A stretch of 64,000 nt of DNA from Dehalococcoidia bacterium (GTDB lineage: Bacteria > Chloroflexota > Dehalococcoidia > Dehalococcoidales > Fen-1064), in the NCBI GenBank assembly GCA_011171075.1, contig DUFD01000045.1:4835-68834 (forward strand), read 5' to 3'. The position numbers and the translations under genes were made by a program. This document shows positions 3,504-63,342 of this stretch, piece after piece (positions within the stretch are counted from its first letter, which is position 1; each line of letters begins with the position of its first letter). The notes under the pieces are model-generated. The model was not told where the DNA came from and did not search any database. It saw only the letters and a list, made by a program, of their open reading frames with translations.

Positions 3504-4232
3504 TCAGGACGATTTCTTCTCACAGCCAAGCTCTTCCGGGAAGCGAATCGCCGTATCGTAATCTTTAAGGGCTTCACGAAGAGTATCGATACTGATAGGT
3601 TCCATCCTGATATATACCGGCCTGCGGCCAATCTCATCAAGGGCATGGGCATCAGAGCCCTGGGTACAGGCACGCTTTCTGGGGTAGCCGCGTACTGTCC
3701 CCGCATTCCACCGGGGCTTGTTCCGGGGAATGGTAATCTCAAGGGCACTGAGATAGTCGCTGGCATGGATTGCCATTTTCACCGCGCGCGGCTGCTGTGT
3801 CTCCAGAAAGCCGCTTGGCCAGCGCTCCACATGGGCGGCTATCGCCAGTCCACCTCTCTCATCTATCTTTCGCAAAGCCTCCTCGGTATCACCGCTGGTT
3901 ACATTAATAGAATCCCCCCACTGCTTTCGGTCAAGCCCGACATAACCAAGAAAGTCCCTCAGCTCCACCAGTGAAGTGTCCAGCGGAAAAAGGGCCAAGA
4001 TATGCCCGCCGACCGTAGACAGTTCGATACCAGGGAAGACGATGAGCCCCTTCCCATTAGATGCCTGTCGTACCTCATCTATTGCTTCAGCCGAATTATG
4101 GTCAGTTATAGCTATCGCCTCAAGACCAGCAGCCAGAGCGGCATCCACTATCTGCTCAGGTGTAACTGACATGTCACTGAAGCAGGCCGATTTCGGGGTA
4201 TGCACGTGTAAATCTATCTTCCTGAATACCAA
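3504..4232 (-). CDS. PHP-domain metal-dependent phosphoesterase
   Basis: 242 aa. 'IDLHVHT', 'ITDHN' and later His/Asp motifs of the PHP (histidinol-phosphatase-like) fold. Confidence 0.75.
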   Translation of the reverse strand: MVFRKIDLHVHTPKSACFSDMSVTPEQIVDAALAAGLEAIAITDHNSAEAIDEVRQASNGKGLIVFPGIELSTVGGHILALFPLDTSLVELRDFLGYVGLDRKQWGDSINVTSGDTEEALRKIDERGGLAIAAHVERWPSGFLETQQPRAVKMAIHASDYLSALEITIPRNKPRWNAGTVRGYPRKRACTQGSDAHALDEIGRRPVYIRMEPISIDTLREALKDYDTAIRFPEELGCEKKSS

Positions 4233-41206: not shown

Positions 41207-41800
41207 GAGTAACCATAGACAGCCCCTCTTGAATCCGTATTGAAGGTGCAGAACACATCCTCTAGAAGCTGCTGTGAGGTACTATCGTTAACCATTATAG
41301 AAGCTGTTTCGAAGGTACAGAAGTCATTGCTCTATGAAGGTATTTGTGTGGGTTCGGAGATTATGTTCTGTAACCTGCCTTGCGAAGGCGTTTCTATGGA
41401 CTCTGCAACCCTGCTCTGCGACTATACCCTGCGAAAGTAAATCGAGAGTGCAGAAGGTATTACTCAGCAAACTCAATGTGAGAGTACCAGAAGTTAGTGC
41501 TCTGCGAAGTCAAATTGAGAGTACTGAAAGTAGTACTCTATAAAAGTTAATCGAGAGTGCAGAAAGTATTACTCAGCAAACTCAATGTGAGAGTACCAGA
41601 CGGTAGTTCTTTGTGAAAGCAAAATGAGAGTGTAGAAAGTAATACTTTTCAAACTTGATTTGAGAGTAACAGAAAACATTCCCCTGCGAAAGGTAATTCG
41701 AGAGTAACAGAAGGTGTCAACGCAGGCGTAATTTGAGAACGCTGAAGGTGACAATCTTGTAGAACCAGCGAAGGTGCAGCCTTTCAAATTTAACCAGTAC
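41204..41800. repeat. tandem array of about 16 degenerate ~36-nt units (GAGAGT-phased), with a ~109-nt higher-order repeat
   Basis: 'GAGAGT' recurs at 41444, 41480, 41517, 41553, 41589, 41626, 41662 and 41700 ('GAGAAC' at 41735), spaced 35-38 nt. 41440-41491 and 41549-41600 match at 51 of 52 nt. Several units carry an internal inverted repeat, e.g. 'AGAGTACT-GAAAGT-AGTACTCT'. Confidence 0.85.
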
Positions 41801-41889: not shown

Positions 41890-42015
41890 ATTAGCTGTTA
41901 ACCGTTAGGTTGTAGGTTCGAGTCCTAGGCGGGGAGCCAGGCTCAGATGTGGGGGGGCACGTAGGTTAATACACAGAACTCTTAAGCTGACATTCGGCCA
42001 TAGTGTTGACCAACT
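41890..42015 (+). repeat. junction module copy L (tRNA-like 3' half plus conserved flank)
   Basis: 'ATTAGCT...GGTTCGAGTCC...GCCA...TTAAGCTGACATTCG...TTGACCAACT'. Recurs inverted at 50831-50940 and, shortened, at 63343-63406. Confidence 0.7.
41895..41939 (+). other. orphan tRNA 3' half, tRNA-Asn-like (att-like remnant)
   Basis: 'CTGTTAA-CCGTT-AGGTT-GTAGG-TTCGAGT-CCTAG-GCGGGGA-G-CCA'. A GTT anticodon-loop-like start, T-loop, A72/G73 and CCA resemble bacterial tRNA-Asn. There is one T-stem mismatch and no 5' half upstream. Confidence 0.5.
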
Positions 42016-42101: not shown

Positions 42102-42128
42102 TTAAGCCCCCAGTATCTCCTTGTGCCC
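42102..42128 (-). repeat. orphan copy of the kinase-gene 3' terminus (R1-A; reads GHKEILGA-stop)
   Basis: 42106-42127 is a 22-nt exact match to 43327-43348. The reading frame and a stop (TAA) are preserved. Lies just downstream of the beta-lactamase-like gene. Confidence 0.8.
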
Positions 42129-42148: not shown

Positions 42149-43288
42149 TCAGAGAGCAGCATACAGGGCACCAATGATGGGAACGATGCGTAGATTCGGA
42201 GTACTGCCCATCTTATTCATCACGTAAGAACAACTGAGTTTGGCATCGATGTCCATTACCACCACTGAACCACCGTATCCACCCCAGTATAAAATCCGAG
42301 GATTCGGACCAATCGGTATCTCCTTGCTAGTAAGTCCAAAACCGAGGCCAAACCTCACGGGTGATGGCCAGGACTGGGGTTGTCCATAGTACTGCTCTTC
42401 TAGTGCTTTCTCAATGGTCGGCAAACCTAATAGATGGACATCATCAAGTTCGCCCCCACAGGCGACAGCAGCTGATATACGAGCGACTGAACGAGCGTTT
42501 CCATGTCCATTACCTGCCGGAATCTCGGCAGCTCTGAATGCTCTGTCCCTCGCATTCAGGGCTGAAAAGAAGGGGAAGTTCATGGCTCGATACAACACTG
42601 AATCTGGTGGAATGTACGAAGGGTCGCCAGGTTTGTACTCAGGTGGCGGAATCATCTCGCCTACTCTAGGTTCATGTTCTTCCGGAAGACCAATATGGAA
42701 ATCGGCTGAAAGTGGCGCGGCCACTTCCCCCTGAAAGAATGTACCGAGTGTGTTTCCTGTAATACGACGCACCAGCTCTCCTACAAGAAAACCCGAGGTC
42801 AAAGCATGGTATTCCCATTCTTTTCCTGGCTCCCACCAGGGTTTCTCTGCAGCCAGTAATGAGACCACCTTATCCCAATCATACAGTGTTTCCATAGGAA
42901 CAGGCATGTCGAGTGCGGGTAGACCGGCCGTGTGGCTCATCAGGTACCGAACTGGCATGGTTTCTTTACCTGCTTGTGCAAACTCAGGCCAATACTTGGC
43001 AACTGGTGCATCAGGGTCAAGCAAGCCGCGGTCAATAAGCATCAGTGCACAGATTGTTGTCATCACTTTCGTGGTCGAGAAGACACATACAATAGTATCC
43101 TTCTCCCACGGGCGCGTCTGGGCTTCATCAGCGTAACCGCCCCAGATATCGACTACGGACTTTCCTTCTATCGTAGCTGCGAATGATGCACCAACCTCCA
43201 GACCCTGCTCGAAGTTGTTGGCAAACGCGTCCTTAACTGGTGAAAACCTGTCGTCGCAATGCCCATAAATCTCAACTGTACCGGCCAT
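42149..43288 (-). CDS. serine hydrolase, beta-lactamase/esterase (class C-like) family
   Basis: 379 aa. 'FSTTKV' S-x-x-K motif, with length and layout typical of the EstB/AmpC-like family. Confidence 0.85.
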   Translation of the reverse strand: MAGTVEIYGHCDDRFSPVKDAFANNFEQGLEVGASFAATIEGKSVVDIWGGYADEAQTRPWEKDTIVCVFSTTKVMTTICALMLIDRGLLDPDAPVAKYWPEFAQAGKETMPVRYLMSHTAGLPALDMPVPMETLYDWDKVVSLLAAEKPWWEPGKEWEYHALTSGFLVGELVRRITGNTLGTFFQGEVAAPLSADFHIGLPEEHEPRVGEMIPPPEYKPGDPSYIPPDSVLYRAMNFPFFSALNARDRAFRAAEIPAGNGHGNARSVARISAAVACGGELDDVHLLGLPTIEKALEEQYYGQPQSWPSPVRFGLGFGLTSKEIPIGPNPRILYWGGYGGSVVVMDIDAKLSCSYVMNKMGSTPNLRIVPIIGALYAAL

Positions 43289-43322: not shown

Positions 43323-46300
43323 CTACGCCCCCAGTATCTCCTTGTGCCTCAGTGCCCTCTCCAGTGAGGGCTGCATCTTCATCTCGCGGAACTCATTGAT
43401 GGCGAAATTAAGGTGCTCTAATGCTTCTGGCTTTTCATCCGGGTAGTGCTCCAGGAGAAGCTCGGCGAGCTGGAGCCGGGTGAGGGCTAGCTCAGGGCGG
43501 AACTTGATATTCGTAGCGACCTCCAGGGCATCAGCGTAGTATTTACGGGCTTCTTCGTATCTTTCCAGGAGCGCGCACGCTCCACCCAGGTGGCGGTCTA
43601 CACACGTCGGCCAATAGTAACCGGTCATATGTGGCGTTTTCCCTGCAAGTTGGTTTAGTAAGGCTTCGGCTGCTTTTTTATGCCGAACCAGTACAGCTAC
43701 TTCAAGCCAGATTGTATCAGTCCAGTAGAAAGTGTAATCGTCAACGGTGCCAATAAACCGACGTCCACCAAGAAACTCATTCAATATGGTGATTGCTTCA
43801 TCGTGCCGGTTAAGATGTGCCAGACAGAGGGTTCCGATATGGGAGTTGAATTCATTGGGTAACATGGTTTGAAGCATGGAATCGGACATTCCCAGCAATA
43901 CTCCAGCCCTGAATCTGGAGAAATTATACGATACTCTTGTAAATCGTTGCAGACCCCACTCTTCACCACGTACTTGGATTTCATCCGCTAATTGCACAGC
44001 CTCATCTAACCGGCCGTCCAGAGTTCTCAGCATAGCCCGAAACTGCAAGGATTGAATTAAGAAGTTGGTCTGCCCACTACGCTCTGCGAATTCTCTATGC
44101 TTACGCAAGATTTCCTCACATCGCTCGCGTTGCCCGTACTCGAGAAAAGTGATACCGAGTACCGCGAGCCCGCCCACAATCGCTCGCGTGTCCACACCGG
44201 CGCGAGAGCGCATCGAAAGCTCCTTAGTTACCTGTAGTCGCTGCTCAGTATATTGCGGTACAGTCGTATAGATTAACCACAAAGGTACCAACATCCAAAA
44301 GGTCTCATCATCTCCTAGCTTATGTATCCGGTCTATAGCTTGATCCATTAACTGAAATCCCGTTCTGGGATGCCCTGTGGAGTACCTCACCAGACCTAGA
44401 AACATATCTGCCACAGCCCTTTCCCTCGTACCCTCTTGGGCATATAGGTCAGCACGACTCGCCCACTCCATACCCTCCCCAGAACCAAAAGCTCCTACCG
44501 TACCATGTCGCCAGTAGACGAGTGCGGGTAGAGCACGTTCACAGGCCCGTGCTGCACGGTTCTCATCACTAATTCCCTCGGCCAGCGAAAAGGCTTCCTG
44601 AAGTTCAGCATCCAGAGCACGTCGTGATTCGCCTGCATTAACTAAGGTGTCGCTAAGAGTCAGAAGGATGTCACACCGCTTTGCCTTATCCTCCGGATTC
44701 AGTACCTCCTGCACCTTGAGTGCCTGCTCCAGCAATCGTATCGCTTCACCATAAGCATAGACACTACTTGCTTTTTCGGCTGCCATCTCACCGTATGAGA
44801 CCGCCTTAGCCAATCCTTCAGTATCGGGTGAATACGAAAAGTGCTCAGCCAGCTCAGCGGCATGCTCTTCAAGACGCTTTCCGTAAACCTCTTCTAAAGC
44901 CTTTCCTACCTGTTGGTGAAGTCGTATCCGCCGTGGAGCAATTATCTCTTCGTAGAGGGTCTGACGGAAGAAGGCATGGGTAAAGCGGTAGGTCACGGCA
45001 GCCCCTACAGTAGAACGTTCCTCTACTACGGCAGCCGCTTTCGCTTCCTCTAAGGCAACAAATAACTCATCATCAGATATATCGGCTACTTTTTGTAAGA
45101 CAGCTAACTGGAACTCCCGGCCGATGACAGAGGCAATGCTCAATATTCGGTTACACTCCTGACTTAGACCCGAGAGACGCTTACCGACAACATCACGCAG
45201 TCCCTCGGGGATGCTCATTTCAAGTTGTGTGGCCTTCCATTGCCCCCCTTCCCGATTGATGAGACCTTCTTCAACCAGGTAGCGCACCACCTCCTGCACA
45301 AAGAGAGGATTGCCCTCGGTCTGGCGGTGCACCGCCTCGGCTAGGCCCCAGGGGACATCCTGCCTGGTAATACTCTCCAGCATCCTTCTGACCTCATCGG
45401 CATTGAGACCCCGCAGCAGGACACGGTCGAAGGTAGCAACCCGACGTAGCTCGGCTAAGGATGCTGATAAGGGATGGGTACGGTCTACTTCAACATCACG
45501 GTAAGTTCCTACTATCATGAGCCTTGCTCCACTAAGGTTACGTGAGACGTGAGTCAGCATCTCCAGCGTACCCTTGTCGGAGTCGTGCAGATCCTCTAAT
45601 ACAATCAGCAGCGGCTGGACTTTGGCAGCGCTGGTGAGGAAACTGGTGACGGCCTGCATCAGCCGGTAGCGCTCTTCCTCCGGGCTCTCAGACGGCTTTG
45701 GCTCTACCTTGAGCTTCTCCCTTACCTCGGAGACAATACGGGCAACATCAGCTGCCCCGGTACCAAGCTCCTTCCTCAGGTCTCTGGTTTCTCTTGTCAT
45801 GACATAGGAGCGCATCGCTTCGACAAAGGCTAGATATGGTAGCGACAGAGACCCTTCCTCATAGCAGTGGCCGACAAGGGTCTTGCCGCCCCTCAGCGTC
45901 ACGTAAGTGGACAGTTGCTCACATAAGGCGGTCTTGCCGATACCCGGCTCTCCAACTACCATCATGAGGGCACCCTGTCCCGACATGGCCCCGTCAAAGG
46001 CCGCCTGTAGCTGTTTTTGCTCCGGTTCACGGCCAACGAAGACGCGGCGGTAGAGGGGACTCTCCGGGGCAGCCGCCACCTGTGACACCGACTCAGTGAC
46101 CTTTCCCTGTTCGATGGATTCCAGAGCTTTGAGGATATCCCCAGCGGAGTCAGGACGTTTATCCGGGTCTTTCTCCAGTAGCTGCAGGATGAGCACCTCT
46201 AGTCCCGGTGGCAGGTCAGCCCGGTGCCAGGTAGGTGATACCACCGAGGTGTTGATATGCTGTCCGATAATAGCCACCGAGTCATCCCCGATAAAGGGTG

Positions 46301-47135
46301 GTCTGCCGGTAACCATCTCATAAAGCATCGCTCCCAGTGAGTAGAGGTCGGCCTTGGGTGTTATCTTGCCACCCATAGCCTGCTCCGGTGGCATGTAGGA
46401 CACCGTGCCCACCATCATGCCTTCCTGGGTTAATCGGGAGAGGTCAACCGCTACCGCCAGGCCGAAGTCGCCTATCTTGGCAGTTCCGTCGGTACTCAGC
46501 CACACATTGCCCGGTTTCAGGTCGCGGTGGATGATTCCCTTAGCGTGGGCGAACTCCAGTCCTTGACAGACAGACTTGGTGATGCCGATAGCCTGTTCTA
46601 GGGGTAATCGGTGCTCGGATGCCTTCTCGATAAGCCCCTCGACATCGCCACCTGACATCAGAGGCAAGACAATGTAGGGCTGGCCTTCGTGGTCACCGAA
46701 GTCGTAGACAGTGACGATATTCGGGTGGTCACCGAGCCTTCCCATGGCCTGGGCTTCACGGGTAATGCGTGTCCTGGCTTCTTCATCGAGCTTCTCGGTC
46801 TTAATCAGGGCAAAGGCGACGTCTCGGTCGAGCGTGTTGTCATGTGCGAGGTAGACCTTCTTCTTACCGCCTTCGCCGAGCAGTTTCTTCACATGGTAGC
46901 GGCCGCCAGCAAAGGAGGTGGGTTCGGGGGAGGGGAGTGCTTCAGGAGTTGGTTCGGGTACTTCTTCAGTTAGGGAGTAACCACATTCATCACAGAATCT
47001 GCCACCTTGAGGATTAGTGTGTCCACATTGTGGACAAATAAGCTCTGCCTGGACTGGTTCTTGGAGTGATTTACCACATTCTAGGCAGAACTTAGCTCCA
47101 TCGCGATTCTCATATCGGCAATCTGGGCATTTCAC
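43323..47135 (-). CDS. double-zinc-ribbon / Ser-Thr protein kinase / STAND (AAA_16-like) ATPase / TPR multidomain protein
   Basis: 1270 aa with a GTG start. 'CPDC...CLEC' and 'CPQC...CDEC', kinase 'HRDLKPGN' and 'DFGLA', Walker A 'GEPGIGKT', Walker B-like 'LLIVLEDLHDSD', and a long helical/TPR C-terminus. Confidence 0.9.
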   Translation of the reverse strand: MKCPDCRYENRDGAKFCLECGKSLQEPVQAELICPQCGHTNPQGGRFCDECGYSLTEEVPEPTPEALPSPEPTSFAGGRYHVKKLLGEGGKKKVYLAHDNTLDRDVAFALIKTEKLDEEARTRITREAQAMGRLGDHPNIVTVYDFGDHEGQPYIVLPLMSGGDVEGLIEKASEHRLPLEQAIGITKSVCQGLEFAHAKGIIHRDLKPGNVWLSTDGTAKIGDFGLAVAVDLSRLTQEGMMVGTVSYMPPEQAMGGKITPKADLYSLGAMLYEMVTGRPPFIGDDSVAIIGQHINTSVVSPTWHRADLPPGLEVLILQLLEKDPDKRPDSAGDILKALESIEQGKVTESVSQVAAAPESPLYRRVFVGREPEQKQLQAAFDGAMSGQGALMMVVGEPGIGKTALCEQLSTYVTLRGGKTLVGHCYEEGSLSLPYLAFVEAMRSYVMTRETRDLRKELGTGAADVARIVSEVREKLKVEPKPSESPEEERYRLMQAVTSFLTSAAKVQPLLIVLEDLHDSDKGTLEMLTHVSRNLSGARLMIVGTYRDVEVDRTHPLSASLAELRRVATFDRVLLRGLNADEVRRMLESITRQDVPWGLAEAVHRQTEGNPLFVQEVVRYLVEEGLINREGGQWKATQLEMSIPEGLRDVVGKRLSGLSQECNRILSIASVIGREFQLAVLQKVADISDDELFVALEEAKAAAVVEERSTVGAAVTYRFTHAFFRQTLYEEIIAPRRIRLHQQVGKALEEVYGKRLEEHAAELAEHFSYSPDTEGLAKAVSYGEMAAEKASSVYAYGEAIRLLEQALKVQEVLNPEDKAKRCDILLTLSDTLVNAGESRRALDAELQEAFSLAEGISDENRAARACERALPALVYWRHGTVGAFGSGEGMEWASRADLYAQEGTRERAVADMFLGLVRYSTGHPRTGFQLMDQAIDRIHKLGDDETFWMLVPLWLIYTTVPQYTEQRLQVTKELSMRSRAGVDTRAIVGGLAVLGITFLEYGQRERCEEILRKHREFAERSGQTNFLIQSLQFRAMLRTLDGRLDEAVQLADEIQVRGEEWGLQRFTRVSYNFSRFRAGVLLGMSDSMLQTMLPNEFNSHIGTLCLAHLNRHDEAITILNEFLGGRRFIGTVDDYTFYWTDTIWLEVAVLVRHKKAAEALLNQLAGKTPHMTGYYWPTCVDRHLGGACALLERYEEARKYYADALEVATNIKFRPELALTRLQLAELLLEHYPDEKPEALEHLNFAINEFREMKMQPSLERALRHKEILGA

Positions 47136-47167
47136 GACTCACTCGCAAGCACTGGCTCGGTGCCCAC

Positions 47168-47196
47168 AGTCTAAGGGTAAACCGAAGTGATGTCAA
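47168..47196 (-). promoter_or_regulatory. sigma70-like promoter of the kinase-STAND gene
   Basis: On the minus strand: TTGACA, a 17-nt spacer, then TAGACT. It lies about 30 nt upstream of the GTG start. The same arrangement is conserved in the copy at 57488-57516. Confidence 0.5.
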
Positions 47197-47199
47197 GCC

Positions 47200-47257
47200 A
47201 GCTGCTGTAGACTCAGAGTAAGTTGTCTTCTTCTCGAATAGCAGCTCGGGAACTGTC
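47200..47257. repeat. upstream module R3, copy K
   Basis: 'AGCTGCTG...CTTCTTCTCGAATAGCAGCTCGGGAACTGTC'. About three quarters of positions match 50972-51028 by hand alignment. Confidence 0.7.
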
Positions 47258-50830: not shown

Positions 50831-50940
50831 TAGTTGGTCAAACTAGGGTCGAATGTCAGCTTAATCATTCTATCTATCAGTAGATCTGGTCCCGCAGTAG
50901 AGCTTGAACCAAACTGGTATCCATCTGTTATTTAGCTAAT
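50831..50940 (-). repeat. junction module copy R (inverted relative to L), including a degenerate tRNA-like 3' end
   Basis: The reverse complement reads 'ATTAGCTAAATAACAG...GGTTCAAGCTCTACTGCGGGACCA...TTAAGCTGACATTCG...TTGACCAACT'. It shares a 15-nt and a 10-nt exact block with L. The tRNA-like part matches L at about 17 of 25 positions. Confidence 0.65.
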
Positions 50941-50971: not shown

Positions 50972-51028
50972 AGCTGCTGAATAGTCGGAACCAGTTCCTT
51001 CTTCTCAAATAGAAGTTCGGGAACTGTC
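50972..51028. repeat. upstream module R3, copy P
   Basis: 'AGCTGCTG...CTTCTTCTCAAATAGAAGTTCGGGAACTGTC'. Direct repeat of 47200-47257. Confidence 0.7.
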
Positions 51029-51079: not shown

Positions 51080-51466
51080 CTATGACAGCATTGTTTTAAT
51101 CTGTGCCACTTGTTCTTCAGCAGTCAGATTCAACAATGGCCTCAATCTCCTCTCAGTTACCATCGAACCACTAATTGGGTCACCTAAAGAATCAATTATT
51201 TCAATAACTTCTGGCGACAGCTTTAAAAGATTCATAATCTGCGTTACTCTGGCTTTTGAGACCTTAAGATGCCTTGCAAGGACAGCGCAAGATGCATATT
51301 CACCGTTGTCTAAAGCTCTACGCCACTCTTTTGCTAGGAAGATGGGATTCCGGTACCGTCGGTTGCCAATCTTGATGAGGTTATGGTTAGATGGGACGAC
51401 TGGTATCTCAAAGATAGCCTGAAAAGTTCTGTGTATTGACCTATGTGGGGAGCCAGCTATTTTTAC
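51080..51466 (-). pseudogene. ParB/KorB-like HTH protein remnant (open frame without a start codon)
   Basis: 128-codon open frame between two stops with no ATG/GTG/TTG until codon ~83. It encodes '...LARHLKVSKARVTQIMNLLKLSPEVIEIIDSL...ERRLRPLLNLTAEEQ', a ParB-type HTH signature. The listed + ORF 51072..51422 is its antisense shadow. Confidence 0.5.
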
Positions 51467-55067: not shown

Positions 55068-55097
55068 TTATGCCCCCGATATCTCCTTGTGCCTGAG
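55068..55097 (-). repeat. orphan copy of the kinase-gene 3' terminus (R1-C; reads LRHKEISGA-stop)
   Basis: 25 of 30 nt match 43323-43352, with frame and stop preserved. Lies downstream of the MFS gene, next to a 9-bp-stem hairpin (55096-55122). Confidence 0.75.
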
Positions 55098-55182
55098 TAT
55101 CTTATCTGAAGATTAAGATACTTAATATTCCTGTTCTTAATGGTTTTATCCTGCGTAGAGGCAAATAGGGAGAATAATTCGA

Positions 55183-56625
55183 CTATTTCTCTTTCTTTCC
55201 CAAGCATAATGCCGGCAATATCCCAGCAAAGCATATTCCCATTGAAACTAGAAAAAAGTCGTGAAACAGATTTAGGGCCAGGTTGATGACTTCCTCCGGA
55301 GCGGATATCATTTCTGATAGTGACAAACCGGCAGTCAGGCCATAAAAACGTCCTACCCCCCATGATGTTAATGCTGAAAGCCCAATTATCATCCCTATCA
55401 TACGCATAATTACCACCAATGATGAAGCGATCCCTCTTTGATTCTCTCCGACTGATTCAATAACGGCTGTAGCAAGTGGCGCAACAACAAGGCCAAATCC
55501 AAGACCACAAACAACTAAATGGAGTGTCATCTCCGGATCGGCAATTTGAAGATTCCAGCGGCTCAGAAAGAAGAAACCAACGCCACTCAAGACCAATCCA
55601 AGTATCGTCGGTATGCGATAACCAAATTGACGACATAGAAACCCGCCAATAACAGCACCGACACCGATCATGGCTGTAAGTCGGAATAACCTCAACCCAC
55701 CTTCTAAAGGTGATGAGCCCAGAATTGTCTCGCTCATGAGGGGCACATTTACCAAGGCCATAATCAAAGCCCCCCCGACGAACAAATTGGTTATGTTGGC
55801 GCTACTGAATTTAACATTCCTAAACATATTGAGAGTGACTAGAGGCTGGGGAAATTTCATCTCCCGAAATATAAAAAGGATGAAAAAGAACACTGACCCA
55901 ATCCATAAGGAAGTAGCATAGGCTACAAAATGTGATTGCTCTGATCTTTGGTACAGAGCTAAGCTGACCAGGACAAGTCCAATAGCGAGTAAAATTCCAC
56001 CAAGGTAATCAATCCTGACTCGACTCCTAGGGCTGGGACTCAGAATAAAGAGGATGAAAAGGATGGCTATTAGACTAACGGGTAAGTTTATCCAAAATAT
56101 CCAGCGCCAATCGAGGATTTCTACTATACCACCACCATAGAAGGGTCCGAGTGCAGCTCCACCCTCTACTACCCCGCCGATAATTCCCAAGGGAACAGCC
56201 CTTCTCCCCTCAGGGAAAATATCACCAACAATTGCCATAGCTATGGGTACCACCGCACCGCCACCAATGGCTTGTAACACCCGTGCGGCAACTATCCATT
56301 CAAAGTTAGGTGCCAAGGCTACGAAGATTGATCCAATTGTGAAAAGCACTAAAGACAAGATATAGATTTGATAGTGACCGTATACGTCTGAAACTCGAGC
56401 CATTAACGGCATGGCAAAGGTATAACCTATTAGATATCCAATGACAATCCATGCCGCTCGATCTAACTCTAGCACGGTAATACTAAGGTCTGGCATCATA
56501 TCAGCTAGAGCACCATATATCACCGTCTGATCAAGGGCACCGAAGAAAATACCAATACATACAATGACCAGAATCAAGGATGGAGATGTATTGCGGTGTA
56601 AGGGTTTTTTAAGGATGACCTGCAT
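55183..56625 (-). CDS. MFS drug/lipid exporter (DHA2-like, about 14 TMS)
   Basis: 480 aa with many TM helices and 'ARVSDVYG'-type motif A. Immediately downstream of the LprG-like lipoprotein gene. Confidence 0.85.
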   Translation of the reverse strand: MQVILKKPLHRNTSPSLILVIVCIGIFFGALDQTVIYGALADMMPDLSITVLELDRAAWIVIGYLIGYTFAMPLMARVSDVYGHYQIYILSLVLFTIGSIFVALAPNFEWIVAARVLQAIGGGAVVPIAMAIVGDIFPEGRRAVPLGIIGGVVEGGAALGPFYGGGIVEILDWRWIFWINLPVSLIAILFILFILSPSPRSRVRIDYLGGILLAIGLVLVSLALYQRSEQSHFVAYATSLWIGSVFFFILFIFREMKFPQPLVTLNMFRNVKFSSANITNLFVGGALIMALVNVPLMSETILGSSPLEGGLRLFRLTAMIGVGAVIGGFLCRQFGYRIPTILGLVLSGVGFFFLSRWNLQIADPEMTLHLVVCGLGFGLVVAPLATAVIESVGENQRGIASSLVVIMRMIGMIIGLSALTSWGVGRFYGLTAGLSLSEMISAPEEVINLALNLFHDFFLVSMGICFAGILPALCLGKKEK

Positions 56626-56634
56626 TATCTACCC

Positions 56635-57342
56635 TTAATTTGGAAGGTTGATTTCCACTTCTTGATTAAAGCTAGATAACTTTATTTCTCTTACAATCCC
56701 CGGTATCTCATCCTCGGTAATCTTGCCCTCAAGCCTTACCTGGTGAAGTAAGAATTCGTCTTGGTCAATCCAAATTTCAATGTCGATCCTAGTACCTACT
56801 AAGGAGCTCAAGGTAATTGGCTGTAAATCCTCAGAGAAAATTTCTCCTGTAATATGATAGCAAGTAATGCCATCGACAGATTCATCTTCGACTAGGTTAA
56901 TACCTGAGATGCTATCCAAAATCGCAGTTATACCAGTACCCGGATCAAAGAGGCTAACAGCAGTGAACTCGCTAGGTAGAAGTTCCCATTCCTTGGTAAA
57001 AGGATTTGTCATATATGTTGTTGTTCCAACAGTTATGACACTGACCTCAAGAAGCATTCCAGCTACAGTTGCTGTGATTGTCGTTTTTAGTTTATCCGGT
57101 CGGGATACATCACCAGTGGCCCTGTTTAGTTCTAAACCTTCAGATATAGGCGTCCCACCACCGGCTTGCTCAAGTTCGAAGTGAAAGGCGCTGACTGTTC
57201 CCATCCTCTCCACCGAGTTATGAACTACCTGCGCTGCAGTTAATGACGATTGCGGAGGAGATGCTGTCTTACAAGCCACGATTGAAGTTCCTGACACAAC
57301 GATAAGTGCCGTAACCATTACTAGCGTTAGTCTGTTCTTCAT
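56635..57342 (-). CDS. LppX/LprAFG-family (LprG-like) lipoprotein
   Basis: 235 aa. Signal plus lipobox-like 'SIVACK'. Size and beta-rich sequence are consistent with the LppX_LprAFG fold. Paired with an MFS gene as in the mycobacterial lprG-p55 operon. Confidence 0.6.
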   Translation of the reverse strand: MKNRLTLVMVTALIVVSGTSIVACKTASPPQSSLTAAQVVHNSVERMGTVSAFHFELEQAGGGTPISEGLELNRATGDVSRPDKLKTTITATVAGMLLEVSVITVGTTTYMTNPFTKEWELLPSEFTAVSLFDPGTGITAILDSISGINLVEDESVDGITCYHITGEIFSEDLQPITLSSLVGTRIDIEIWIDQDEFLLHQVRLEGKITEDEIPGIVREIKLSSFNQEVEINLPN

Positions 57343-57428
57343 TCGGCCTTACCTCTCACCTGACAATTTGGACATAGCATCTAGAGCTGGGTACCATAAT
57401 CTGAACAGAACTCTGCCCTTTCAAGGTT

Positions 57429-57517
57429 CTATGTTTGAAAGCTCGGACACTTCATGACTCGCTCGAAAGCACGGGTTCAGTGCCCACAGTCTAGAAGTAA
57501 AATAAAGTGATGTCAAG
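57429..57517 (-). pseudogene. 5' remnant of a kinase-STAND paralogue (promoter, leader, MKCP, then a stop after 8 codons)
   Basis: 57441-57517 matches 47121-47197 at 59 of 77 nt (hand count). This includes TTGACA-17-TAGACT (57488-57516) and the start codon. The remnant ORF reads MKCPSFQT-stop. Confidence 0.75.
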
Positions 57518-61214: not shown

Positions 61215-61689
61215 ACCAAAATACCTCCTTGTTATTCTCTGTTATCAGTCTCGCCAAGCTCTATATTCCCCGATATAAAAACCTGCTTTGCAATCTTAGT
61301 ACCACGCTTCACCACTGTCAAGCTTGCTGGATACACTGAATATTTTTCTTTTTAATGAATGTATAGGATACTTACTATACAGGCTACTGAGTTGAATGAC
61401 GTGTGAACTCATCGCTAGATTTTTAATTTAGCGTGGTTTATCTACCAGAGTGTTTACGCTGGTGTGGGTGGGGGGAGTAAAGACCCTAGAAACTCCTTAC
61501 GCCTCAAAACACGCTCGAGAGACAGCCGCTTCTTCATATTGCTTGACTCTCATATTGACACGAGTATTATAATTAGCGCACAAATTAATTAGGATATATT
61601 CTACTATTCTGACAAATTTTTAAAAATCCGATCCTTAGTGGATGTTAATCAGCTTGTCCTAATACTTTAGGAGAGGGAGATATCAGACA

Positions 61690-63198: not shown

Positions 63199-63271
63199 CT
63201 ACGCCCCGAGTATCTCCTTATGCCTCAGTGCCCTCTCCAGCGAGGGCTGCATCTTCATCCCACGGAACTCA
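63199..63271 (-). pseudogene. 24-codon 3' remnant of another kinase-STAND paralogue (R1-D)
   Basis: 68 of 73 nt match 43323-43395. It reads 'EFRGMKMQPSLERALRHKEILGA-stop' against 'EFREMKMQPSLERALRHKEILGA-stop' in the intact gene. Homology ends abruptly at 63272. Confidence 0.85.
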
Positions 63272-63342
63272 GGTTGTTTGTCCGGTACTACGTTAAGCAC
63301 TTAATTGACTGTGTGTAGTAATCCAATAAAATAGTATTTTGT

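Follow-up and report, generated by a model that had tools for sequence, protein, structure and literature searches.

In a 64,000-nucleotide stretch of DNA from a Dehalococcoidia bacterium (contig DUFD01000045.1, positions 4,835 to 68,834 of the forward strand; hereafter the window), the interval 55068-57517 carries the genes for an LprG-like lipoprotein and a transporter of the major facilitator superfamily (MFS) between two sequences that match the start and the end of a far longer gene. The latter, which we call K, is a multicopy kinase-STAND gene family, and an intact unit of it is located at 43323-47197. A first-pass annotation of the window had interpreted the interval as a precise replacement, in which foreign cargo took the place of a single K open reading frame (ORF) and both gene termini were kept. 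Our analysis favors a different history: the interval is probably a decayed K-family locus whose promoter now serves the lprG-MFS pair, and not the product of a one-step ORF swap. Throughout, a free tail is a K 3' end without a K body upstream, and a shell consists of a K promoter, a cargo and a K tail, with the K body absent. The shell enclosing lprG-MFS (55068-57517) is referred to as shell A, and L-numbers (L001, L053 and so on) denote the related genome and metagenome loci that were compared with the window.

The anatomy of the interval can be read directly. On the minus strand, it runs from a K 5' scar (57361-57517) through lprG and the MFS gene to a K 3' scar (55068-55098), with the following features:

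57472-57517, minus strand: retained K-family promoter module, with the -35 box TTGACA (57516-57511), a 17-nt spacer, the -10 box TAGACT (57493-57488) and the first leader bases.
57361-57471, minus strand: K leader followed by about 32 N-terminal codons of the zinc-ribbon region, all in decay, as stop codons interrupt the frame and cysteines have been lost.
56635-57342, minus strand: LprG-like lipoprotein gene (Pfam PF07161, LppX_LprAFG, E 1.3e-20).
55183-56625, minus strand: DHA2-like MFS transporter gene (Pfam MFS_1, E 5.8e-48).
55068-55098, minus strand: free K 3' stub, encoding LRHKEISGA and a stop, with no K-like sequence upstream.

The Pfam matches agree with the identities that had been proposed for the two genes between the scars. 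The same arrangement is present on L001 and L002, which are contigs of other samples, at 99.5-99.96% identity. Thus, it is not an assembly artefact of the window.

The 5' scar copies the beginning of K. The repeat finder aligned 57445-57517 with 47125-47197, both on the minus strand, at 81% identity over 73 nt, bearing out the earlier description of a copy that comprises TTGACA, the 17-nt spacer, TAGACT, the leader, an MKCP start and a stop after eight codons. These codons read ATG AAG TGT CCG AGC TTT CAA ACA TAG (MKCPSFQT-stop). The promoter pattern TTGACATCACTT..TTTAC...TAGACTGTGGGCAC occurs exactly twice in the window, where shuffled sequences give an expectation of 0. A gap-free alignment to the 5' ends of K paralogues reaches further than first described, to about 57361, with identities of 74% over 113 nt to the window K, 80.5% over 118 nt to L010 and 73% over 157 nt to L053, and at most 18 nt separate the end of the scar from the lprG ATG (57342). 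The stub therefore has the marks of a pseudogene, combining gap-free homology to K with stop codons and lost cysteines.

In contrast to these decayed codons, the promoter hexamers and their spacing are intact. The retained promoter is the best sigma-70-like site between 54.6 and 58.4 kb (10/12 matches), and about 93% of the positions of the 46-nt module fit the K promoter consensus. The other shells described below behave likewise, with hexamers intact and codons decayed or gone. Intact hexamers beside decayed codons make it plausible that lprG-MFS captured the K promoter. This part of the first-pass annotation therefore stands as plausible, given the best local sigma-70-like site, the intact hexamers and the recurring shells, while the use of the promoter is a prediction from the sequence.

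The 3' scar has a different standing. As had been noted, 55068-55097 is a copy of the last nine K codons and the stop: read from 55097 to 55068 it is CTC AGG CAC AAG GAG ATA TCG GGG GCA TAA, identical to the K terminus at 26/30 positions. This copy is not alone. The 22-mer GGCACAAGGAGATACTGGGGGC, with up to two mismatches, has four matches on the minus strand, at 42106, 43327, 55072 and 63203, for a chance expectation of 0.00. In total the window holds five K 3' tails, four of which are free; only the one at 43327 ends a gene. The features concerned are:

43323-47197, minus strand: intact K unit, with promoter, leader and a 1270-aa protein (gene 43323-47135).
42149-43288, minus strand: single-gene cassette of the beta-lactamase/esterase family, beginning 35 nt past the K stop codon.
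42102-42127, minus strand: free K 3' stub closing this cassette, with a 22-nt perfect repeat shared with the K terminus.
61478-61550, minus strand: decayed free K 3' stub, at 64-68% identity.
63199-63300, minus strand: free K 3' stub of about 100 nt, at 93% identity (repeat finder), the tail of a second shell reaching past the window end.

No K body was found upstream of 63199-63300 or 61478-61550. With five copies in the window and 90 free copies elsewhere, the reading of one gene precisely replaced between its two retained ends is not supported. The first-pass annotation had named, as an outcome that would speak against it, that its modules were dispersed repeats beside unrelated genes, and this is what we find for the 3' module. 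The precision of the replacement is probably only apparent, a consequence of the K tails that occur throughout the lineage.

Two small features adjoin the 55068 tail. A 9-bp inverted repeat, AAGTATCTTA...TAAGATACT, at 55099-55125 (minus strand) abuts its 5' edge and sits just 3' of the MFS stop codon (z about -2, no T-run). About 210 nt past the tail, the non-coding segment 54695-54855 is 74% identical over 163 nt to L100 9643-9804, the DNA directly downstream of an L100 shell tail, although the global alignment is poor.

The extent of the tail class was assessed in a census that combined a metagenome scan (84 loci, chiefly of estuarine and marine sediment) with the genome loci, the modules being found by their 3' pattern. 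It gave 26 K 3' modules on ORFs of at least 400 codons, 19 at contig ends, which were left unclassified, and 90 that are free. The free tails represent at least 52 independent junction types, and their 5' boundaries are evenly spread from about 25 to 98 nt from the stop codon. Longer free K remnants number 22; in the loci the extent ranges from 25 to about 300 nt, always of extreme 3' sequence. A terminal core of about 25 nt is present in every free tail whatever its 5' extent, this 25-nt minimum being the detection limit as well. In sequence, the tails run collinear with the end of K, some of them with frameshifts or signs of decay (61478; L014_3025). A tblastn search with the whole K protein found no internal K fragments in any locus.

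At the protein level, a search with the last 79 K residues returned 820 clusters, of which the best 120 are all 71-139 aa long. Among 27 short C-terminal sequences that we inspected, 20 are clear 5' truncations of K, several of them on 20-105-kb contigs; where the contig is no longer than about 1 kb, such a short ORF may instead belong to an intact gene that runs off the contig. Many metagenomic ORFs of 71-139 aa annotated as 'TPR repeat protein' thus appear to be K tails. A viral origin was rejected, as the two pattern matches on viral contigs are chance hits without extended homology.

A genome scan for the tail returned matches only in Dehalococcoidia metagenome-assembled genomes (MAGs), namely W156 (7 contigs), the bin10 chromosome (CP070842.1), BS750m-G43 and SRP214966_co4_511. 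The best K matches are about 77-80% identical over K, no record matched the window K protein sequence exactly, and W156 holds at least six K copies. The K protein combines a double zinc ribbon, a Ser/Thr kinase, AAA_16 and TPR domains (Pfam). We rejected K as a known defense system, since PADLOC and NCBIfam match the kinase domain only.

Homology between K copies runs from the -35 box to the stop codon. Mean pairwise identity among five full-length units is essentially nil upstream of the -35 box, 53-68% in the promoter and leader, 75-88% in the kinase and AAA domains, 30-50% in a hypervariable C-terminal region of about 1 kb, and 93% in the last 60 nt. In the window K, the hypervariable TPR/sensor region spans 43600-44650 (residues ~835-1180), with 30-50% nucleotide and 28-54% amino acid identity among paralogues; such variability between conserved flanks is the pattern of NLR-like sensors with swappable recognition domains. 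One further locus, L047, has a K-type promoter (4131-4180), a hairpin, about 1.1 kb unlike K and then K residues 326-1270, and may be a K variant with a replaced N-terminal domain.

Shells recur at least five more times, once just past the window end, giving at least six in all with one promoter family. They are organized as follows:

L053 (its coordinate plus 60648 gives the window coordinate; the overlap with the window is 100% identical): promoter with K residues 1-161, then a 1023-aa FAD/Fe-S oxidase, and finally the 63199-63300 tail of the window.
L100, first shell: promoter, hydrolase, tail.
L100, second shell: promoter, an aminopeptidase gene whose ATG sits where K has its own, tail.
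L072: promoter and about 10 codons, a GNAT cassette, and the tail termed tail58.
L011/L086: an empty shell, in which an 88-aa in-frame mini-K joins about codon 13 to codon 1191.

At L053 2551-7176, the oxidase is of the GlcD/CCG type, and the K promoter of this second shell and the 161 codons that follow it lie outside the window. The mini-K (L011 2931-3197, L086 1736-1978) consists of the first 13 and last 75 codons with the promoter kept; P0099 is the sole mini-K form among the 27 short K C-terminal ORFs, the other 26 being mostly plain 5'-truncated tails.

How a shell may form is illustrated by one cassette that is observed in three settings. In L003, L081 and L099, an intact K precedes the GNAT cassette and its tail58; in L043 the cassette follows a free tail, and in L072 a promoter stub. 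The cassette homology in L072 starts about 10 nt past the position of the K stop codon in L003. The series L003, L043 and L072 thus shows that loss of the K body in front of an existing cassette-plus-tail can give rise to a shell. Consequently, the two scars of a shell need not stem from one gene.

The tails also occur in ordered arrays, where they set apart compact, co-oriented cassettes of one or two genes on the 3' side of K genes. The K-cassette-tail order is common, being found at 42-47 kb of the window and in L003, L009, L011 and L073. The intervals between tails mostly hold one co-oriented ORF, which starts 10-130 nt past the previous stop and ends 0-90 nt before the next tail. Examples are:

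L008: tail, alpha/beta hydrolase, tail, DUF6815 protein, tail, methyltransferase, tail, tRNA-Arg.
L014: methyltransferase, tail, hydrolase, tail.
L073: K, Fe-S protein, tail, small ORF, tail, beta-lactamase family protein, tail.
L083: acyl-CoA dehydrogenase, tail, amidohydrolase, tail, two small genes, tail.

Cassettes and flanks have changed partners within these arrays. The beta-lactamase-family cassette of the window recurs in L073 with the same tail junction at 89% identity, where it comes third in the array and the K gene at the head is another paralogue. Four different downstream flanks follow the GNAT cassette and its tail58 junction, and one flank is found behind two different cassettes; the switch point lies at or inside the tail. 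Moreover, at least nine downstream flanks occur in two states: in one locus the flank follows an intact K, in another a free tail sits in its place. In one such pair, tail58 and its flank F in L003 match the K end and F in L005 (bin10) at 87% over 1.3 kb, while the K genes of L003 and bin10 are only 77% identical, below the identity of the flank. Free tails at the positions of intact K genes argue that these tails began as gene remnants, not as imported sites. We suggest from these comparisons that the tails are in-situ K remnants that also act as joints at which cassettes and flanks re-assort; homology-dependent recombination between the strongly conserved K 3' ends would be the simplest mechanism.

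A syntenic relative, L036/L083, offers a view of the window locus itself. It is 81% identical to the window over two acyl-CoA dehydrogenase genes, and a K 3' remnant of about 150 nt directly follows the dehydrogenase pair, succeeded by cassettes and tails. A K remnant after the same dehydrogenase pair implies that a K-derived array occupied this position in both lineages. The search for a syntenic locus with an intact K paralogue, proposed with the first-pass annotation, yielded none: at the locus shared by L036/L083 and the window, no intact K was found.

Our model for shell A would therefore comprise three steps. First, lprG-MFS would have been a promoterless, co-oriented cassette directly 3' of a K paralogue, its far side closed, as is usual for cassettes of this lineage, by a 5'-truncated K tail. 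Second, the K body would have been deleted, leaving the sigma-70-type promoter, the leader and about 32 codons, which have since decayed. Third, lprG-MFS would now be transcribed from the K promoter. By analogy with the GNAT series, shell A most likely derives from such a K, lprG-MFS and tail arrangement, and the 30-nt 55068 tail most probably represents the K remnant on the far side of the cassette and not the end of the gene that donated the promoter. Both the order of events at this locus and the use of the promoter are proposed here on the basis of sequence comparison.

The cargo is a conserved gene pair in its own right. Co-oriented lprG and MFS genes are also paired in eight homologous loci, the pair being conserved in Dehalococcoidia, and the closest LprG homologues, 56-58% identical, all adjoin an MFS gene. 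The MFS protein scores 218.6 bits against TIGR00711 (DHA2 EmrB), just under the cut-off of 230.2. In mycobacteria, the lprG-Rv1410c (P55) operon likewise has an LppX_LprAFG lipoprotein gene directly followed by a DHA2-like MFS gene. The gene order is thus shared with the window pair; the homology is distant, and the likeness lies in the genes only, covering the cargo and not the shell. Near one LprG homologue, in L015, an unrelated free tail lies 4 kb away.

Several observations weigh against the history we prefer. No K modules lie beside the closest LprG homologues, and no relative was found in which an intact K adjoins lprG-MFS and a tail. Simple neutral deletion does not by itself explain why, in the loci, a 3.8-kb gene leaves remnants of no more than its final 300 nt or so (ORFs of up to 139 aa in the protein database), and it does not explain the regularity of the cassettes either. 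Furthermore, the K 3' end is unusually conserved at synonymous positions. Across 27 unique true K ends, third-position synonymous identity is 0.61-0.65 from codon -80 to -25, 0.74 from -25 to -10 and 0.81 over the last ten codons, where CTG GGG is invariant; across 11 full-length K genes, identity at four-fold sites is about 0.45-0.5 in the kinase and AAA regions vs 0.73 in the last 25 codons. This pattern points to a nucleotide-level function, for which the decay model has no need, or to local homogenization. The 3' bias of the remnants may in part reflect ascertainment, as the search used a 3' pattern, the K 3' end is the most conserved part of the gene and other short remnants would escape detection. 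Short remnants may also outlast long ones under biased deletion, a further source of ascertainment.

The main alternative for the underlying process, which we consider unlikely, is a dedicated cassette platform with integron-like logic. Here, the last 25-30 nt of K (AAGGAGAT.CTGGGGGC.TAG) would be a candidate recombination site, gene-plus-site cassettes would be inserted just past the stop of K or of an earlier tail, and the K promoter would drive their expression. K itself would be dispensable, the recombinase or nuclease would act in trans, shell A would be a platform that lost its K body, and promoter-cargo-tail shells would be working mini-platforms in sediment Dehalococcoidia. Such a platform would account for the arrays of compact, co-oriented, apparently promoterless one-gene units with a repeat after each, for the same junction with four flanks and the same flank behind different cassettes, with the switch at or within the tail, for the terminal core of about 25 nt that all free tails retain and for the raised synonymous conservation over the last 10-25 K codons; insertion after the stop would also leave K undisrupted. 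However, the 25-nt core equals the detection limit, some tails decay (61478; L014_3025), and at least nine lie exactly where other loci hold an intact K. Nor does the tail look like a known site: folding of both strands was not significant for the K end and the 42102 tail (z -0.2 to +1.2), there is no dyad symmetry, and inspection of the aligned tails revealed no GTTRRRY/RYYYAAC core sites. Finally, no integrase, transposase or reverse transcriptase is present among the Pfam-scanned ORFs, which are part of all ORFs (41-64 kb of the window; L008, L053 and L083).

Three other readings were rejected. A diversity-generating retroelement is disfavored by the absence of a reverse transcriptase among the scanned ORFs, by differences between tails and K that are not confined to adenines and by the full divergence of the ~1-kb hypervariable part of K. 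A dispersed repeat of the miniature inverted-repeat transposable element (MITE) or repetitive extragenic palindromic (REP) type does not fit tails of variable length that lack a palindrome and are collinear with coding sequence. The HNH gene beside K in L003 and L005 is not a general homing partner, being restricted to that locus family. It encodes a 96-aa HNH-motif protein with its own promoter directly after the K end or tail (L003 5264-5551; L005 990-1277 and 7427-7714), and the second copy in bin10 adjoins an 'empty' site without the whole K-cassette-tail block.

Decidedly unlikely, in our view, is the swap originally proposed, in which the body of one K paralogue, from about codon 33 to codon -10, was replaced once by foreign lprG-MFS DNA. 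For this locus alone it is the most parsimonious account, with one event and two junctions; the scars are co-oriented and in the right order, and the GC content of the cargo is lower (43% vs ~52%). The second L100 shell resembles a tight replacement as well, as the cargo starts exactly where the K ATG would be and its end touches or overlaps the tail. What decides against the swap is that free tails like the 3' scar number at least 90 and mostly lack an upstream 5' scar, that the L003-L043-L072 series provides a shell by deletion upstream of an existing cassette-plus-tail, and that the K-cassette-tail arrangement is common.

It is very improbable that tails are kept for the expression of downstream genes, with a ribosome standby or coupling site (AAGGAG) or an mRNA processing site in the last K codons and selection against deletions that remove the tail: the nucleotide-level constraint on AAGGAGAT.CTGGGGGC within K, the joint retention of tail and downstream gene in K truncations and the L011 tail, whose AAGGAG is the Shine-Dalgarno sequence of the next ORF, would fit, but several tails, among them those at 55068, 42102, L014_4059 and L008_3350, precede non-coding DNA, a convergent gene or a tRNA gene, and most downstream ORFs carry their own Shine-Dalgarno sequence 20-35 nt past the stop codon.

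Our literature search found no description of this kinase-tail and cassette pattern, and it resembles several known arrangements in part. The closest in layout are the orphan modules of rhs and cdiA loci, where a full-length gene is followed by co-oriented 5'-truncated remnants separated by small genes; these arrays vary between strains and are thought to be built by recombination in conserved segments. K arrays have the same layout of full-length gene, co-oriented truncated remnants and small genes. However, K remnants keep the conserved extreme 3' end, whereas rhs/cdiA orphans keep the variable module; the genes between them are assorted enzymes and transporters and not immunity genes, and K is a kinase-STAND protein, not a toxin.

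Integrons (intI, attI, Pc, attC) share with the K arrays the compact, co-oriented promoterless cassettes each with a repeat, the upstream promoter and the variable content. In the K arrays, the single-ORF cassettes below the upstream promoter are apparently promoterless, and their expression from it is predicted from sequence. In contrast to integrons, no intI occurs among the scanned ORFs, the repeat is a coding fragment of variable length without an attC hairpin or core, and some repeats are in-situ gene remnants. A third parallel is accretion at gene 3' ends. In the arrays of cis-mobilizable elements (CIMEs) and integrative and conjugative elements (ICEs) at fda, and in the Dehalococcoides ssrA islands, direct repeats of a gene 3' end delimit successive segments inserted past the intact gene. 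A displaced 3' end on a native flank is also seen here, in the match of L003 tail58 and F to the L005 K end and F. Unlike CIME/ICE accretion, the K units measure 0.5-2.4 kb, come without an integrase and have many paralogues as targets, and unlike a fixed att core the K repeats have continuous lengths from 25 to about 300 nt, with at least 52 boundaries. Promoter capture after pseudogenization or deletion, where an orphan promoter drives the next ORF, is a further relative; here it would be systematic, with one promoter family and at least six shells.

If decay and homologous recombination alone are responsible, a paralogue family with fast turnover would seed a streamlined genome with promoters and recombination joints, and these would re-wire and shuffle unrelated metabolic and transport genes. 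The result resembles a natural promoter trap with cassette arrays, without obvious mobile-element machinery. A dedicated site, if true, would represent a new gene-capture system in an abundant uncultured sediment lineage.

Other features of the window lie around the K region. Scans of the window for tRNA and Rfam families gave no matches, and no complete tRNA was found in it. On the plus strand, 41894-41940 is a tRNA-Asn 3' fragment, 93.6% identical to the 3' part of an intact tRNA-Asn in L010 (6191-6265). Such a fragment is typical of an integrative-element att remnant, and the same fragment occurs near a K gene in L009. Between it and an upstream glycosyltransferase-like gene, 41425-41715 holds non-coding tandem copies of about 109 nt (100%, 83% and 61% identity). 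The segment 41958-42004, which adjoins the tRNA fragment, recurs in inverted orientation and in two pieces, with 81-86% complementarity, at 50842-50877 and 51419-51447, which are about 540 nt apart and about 9 kb away. These inverted sites bracket a block of K, MFS, ChrB and methyltransferase genes, and could mark where an island, or an element that was interrupted, has its ends. Lastly, 47200-47257 (the 58 nt directly before the K promoter) is copied at 50972-51028, downstream of the methyltransferase gene, at 79% identity with a 31-nt core at 90%.

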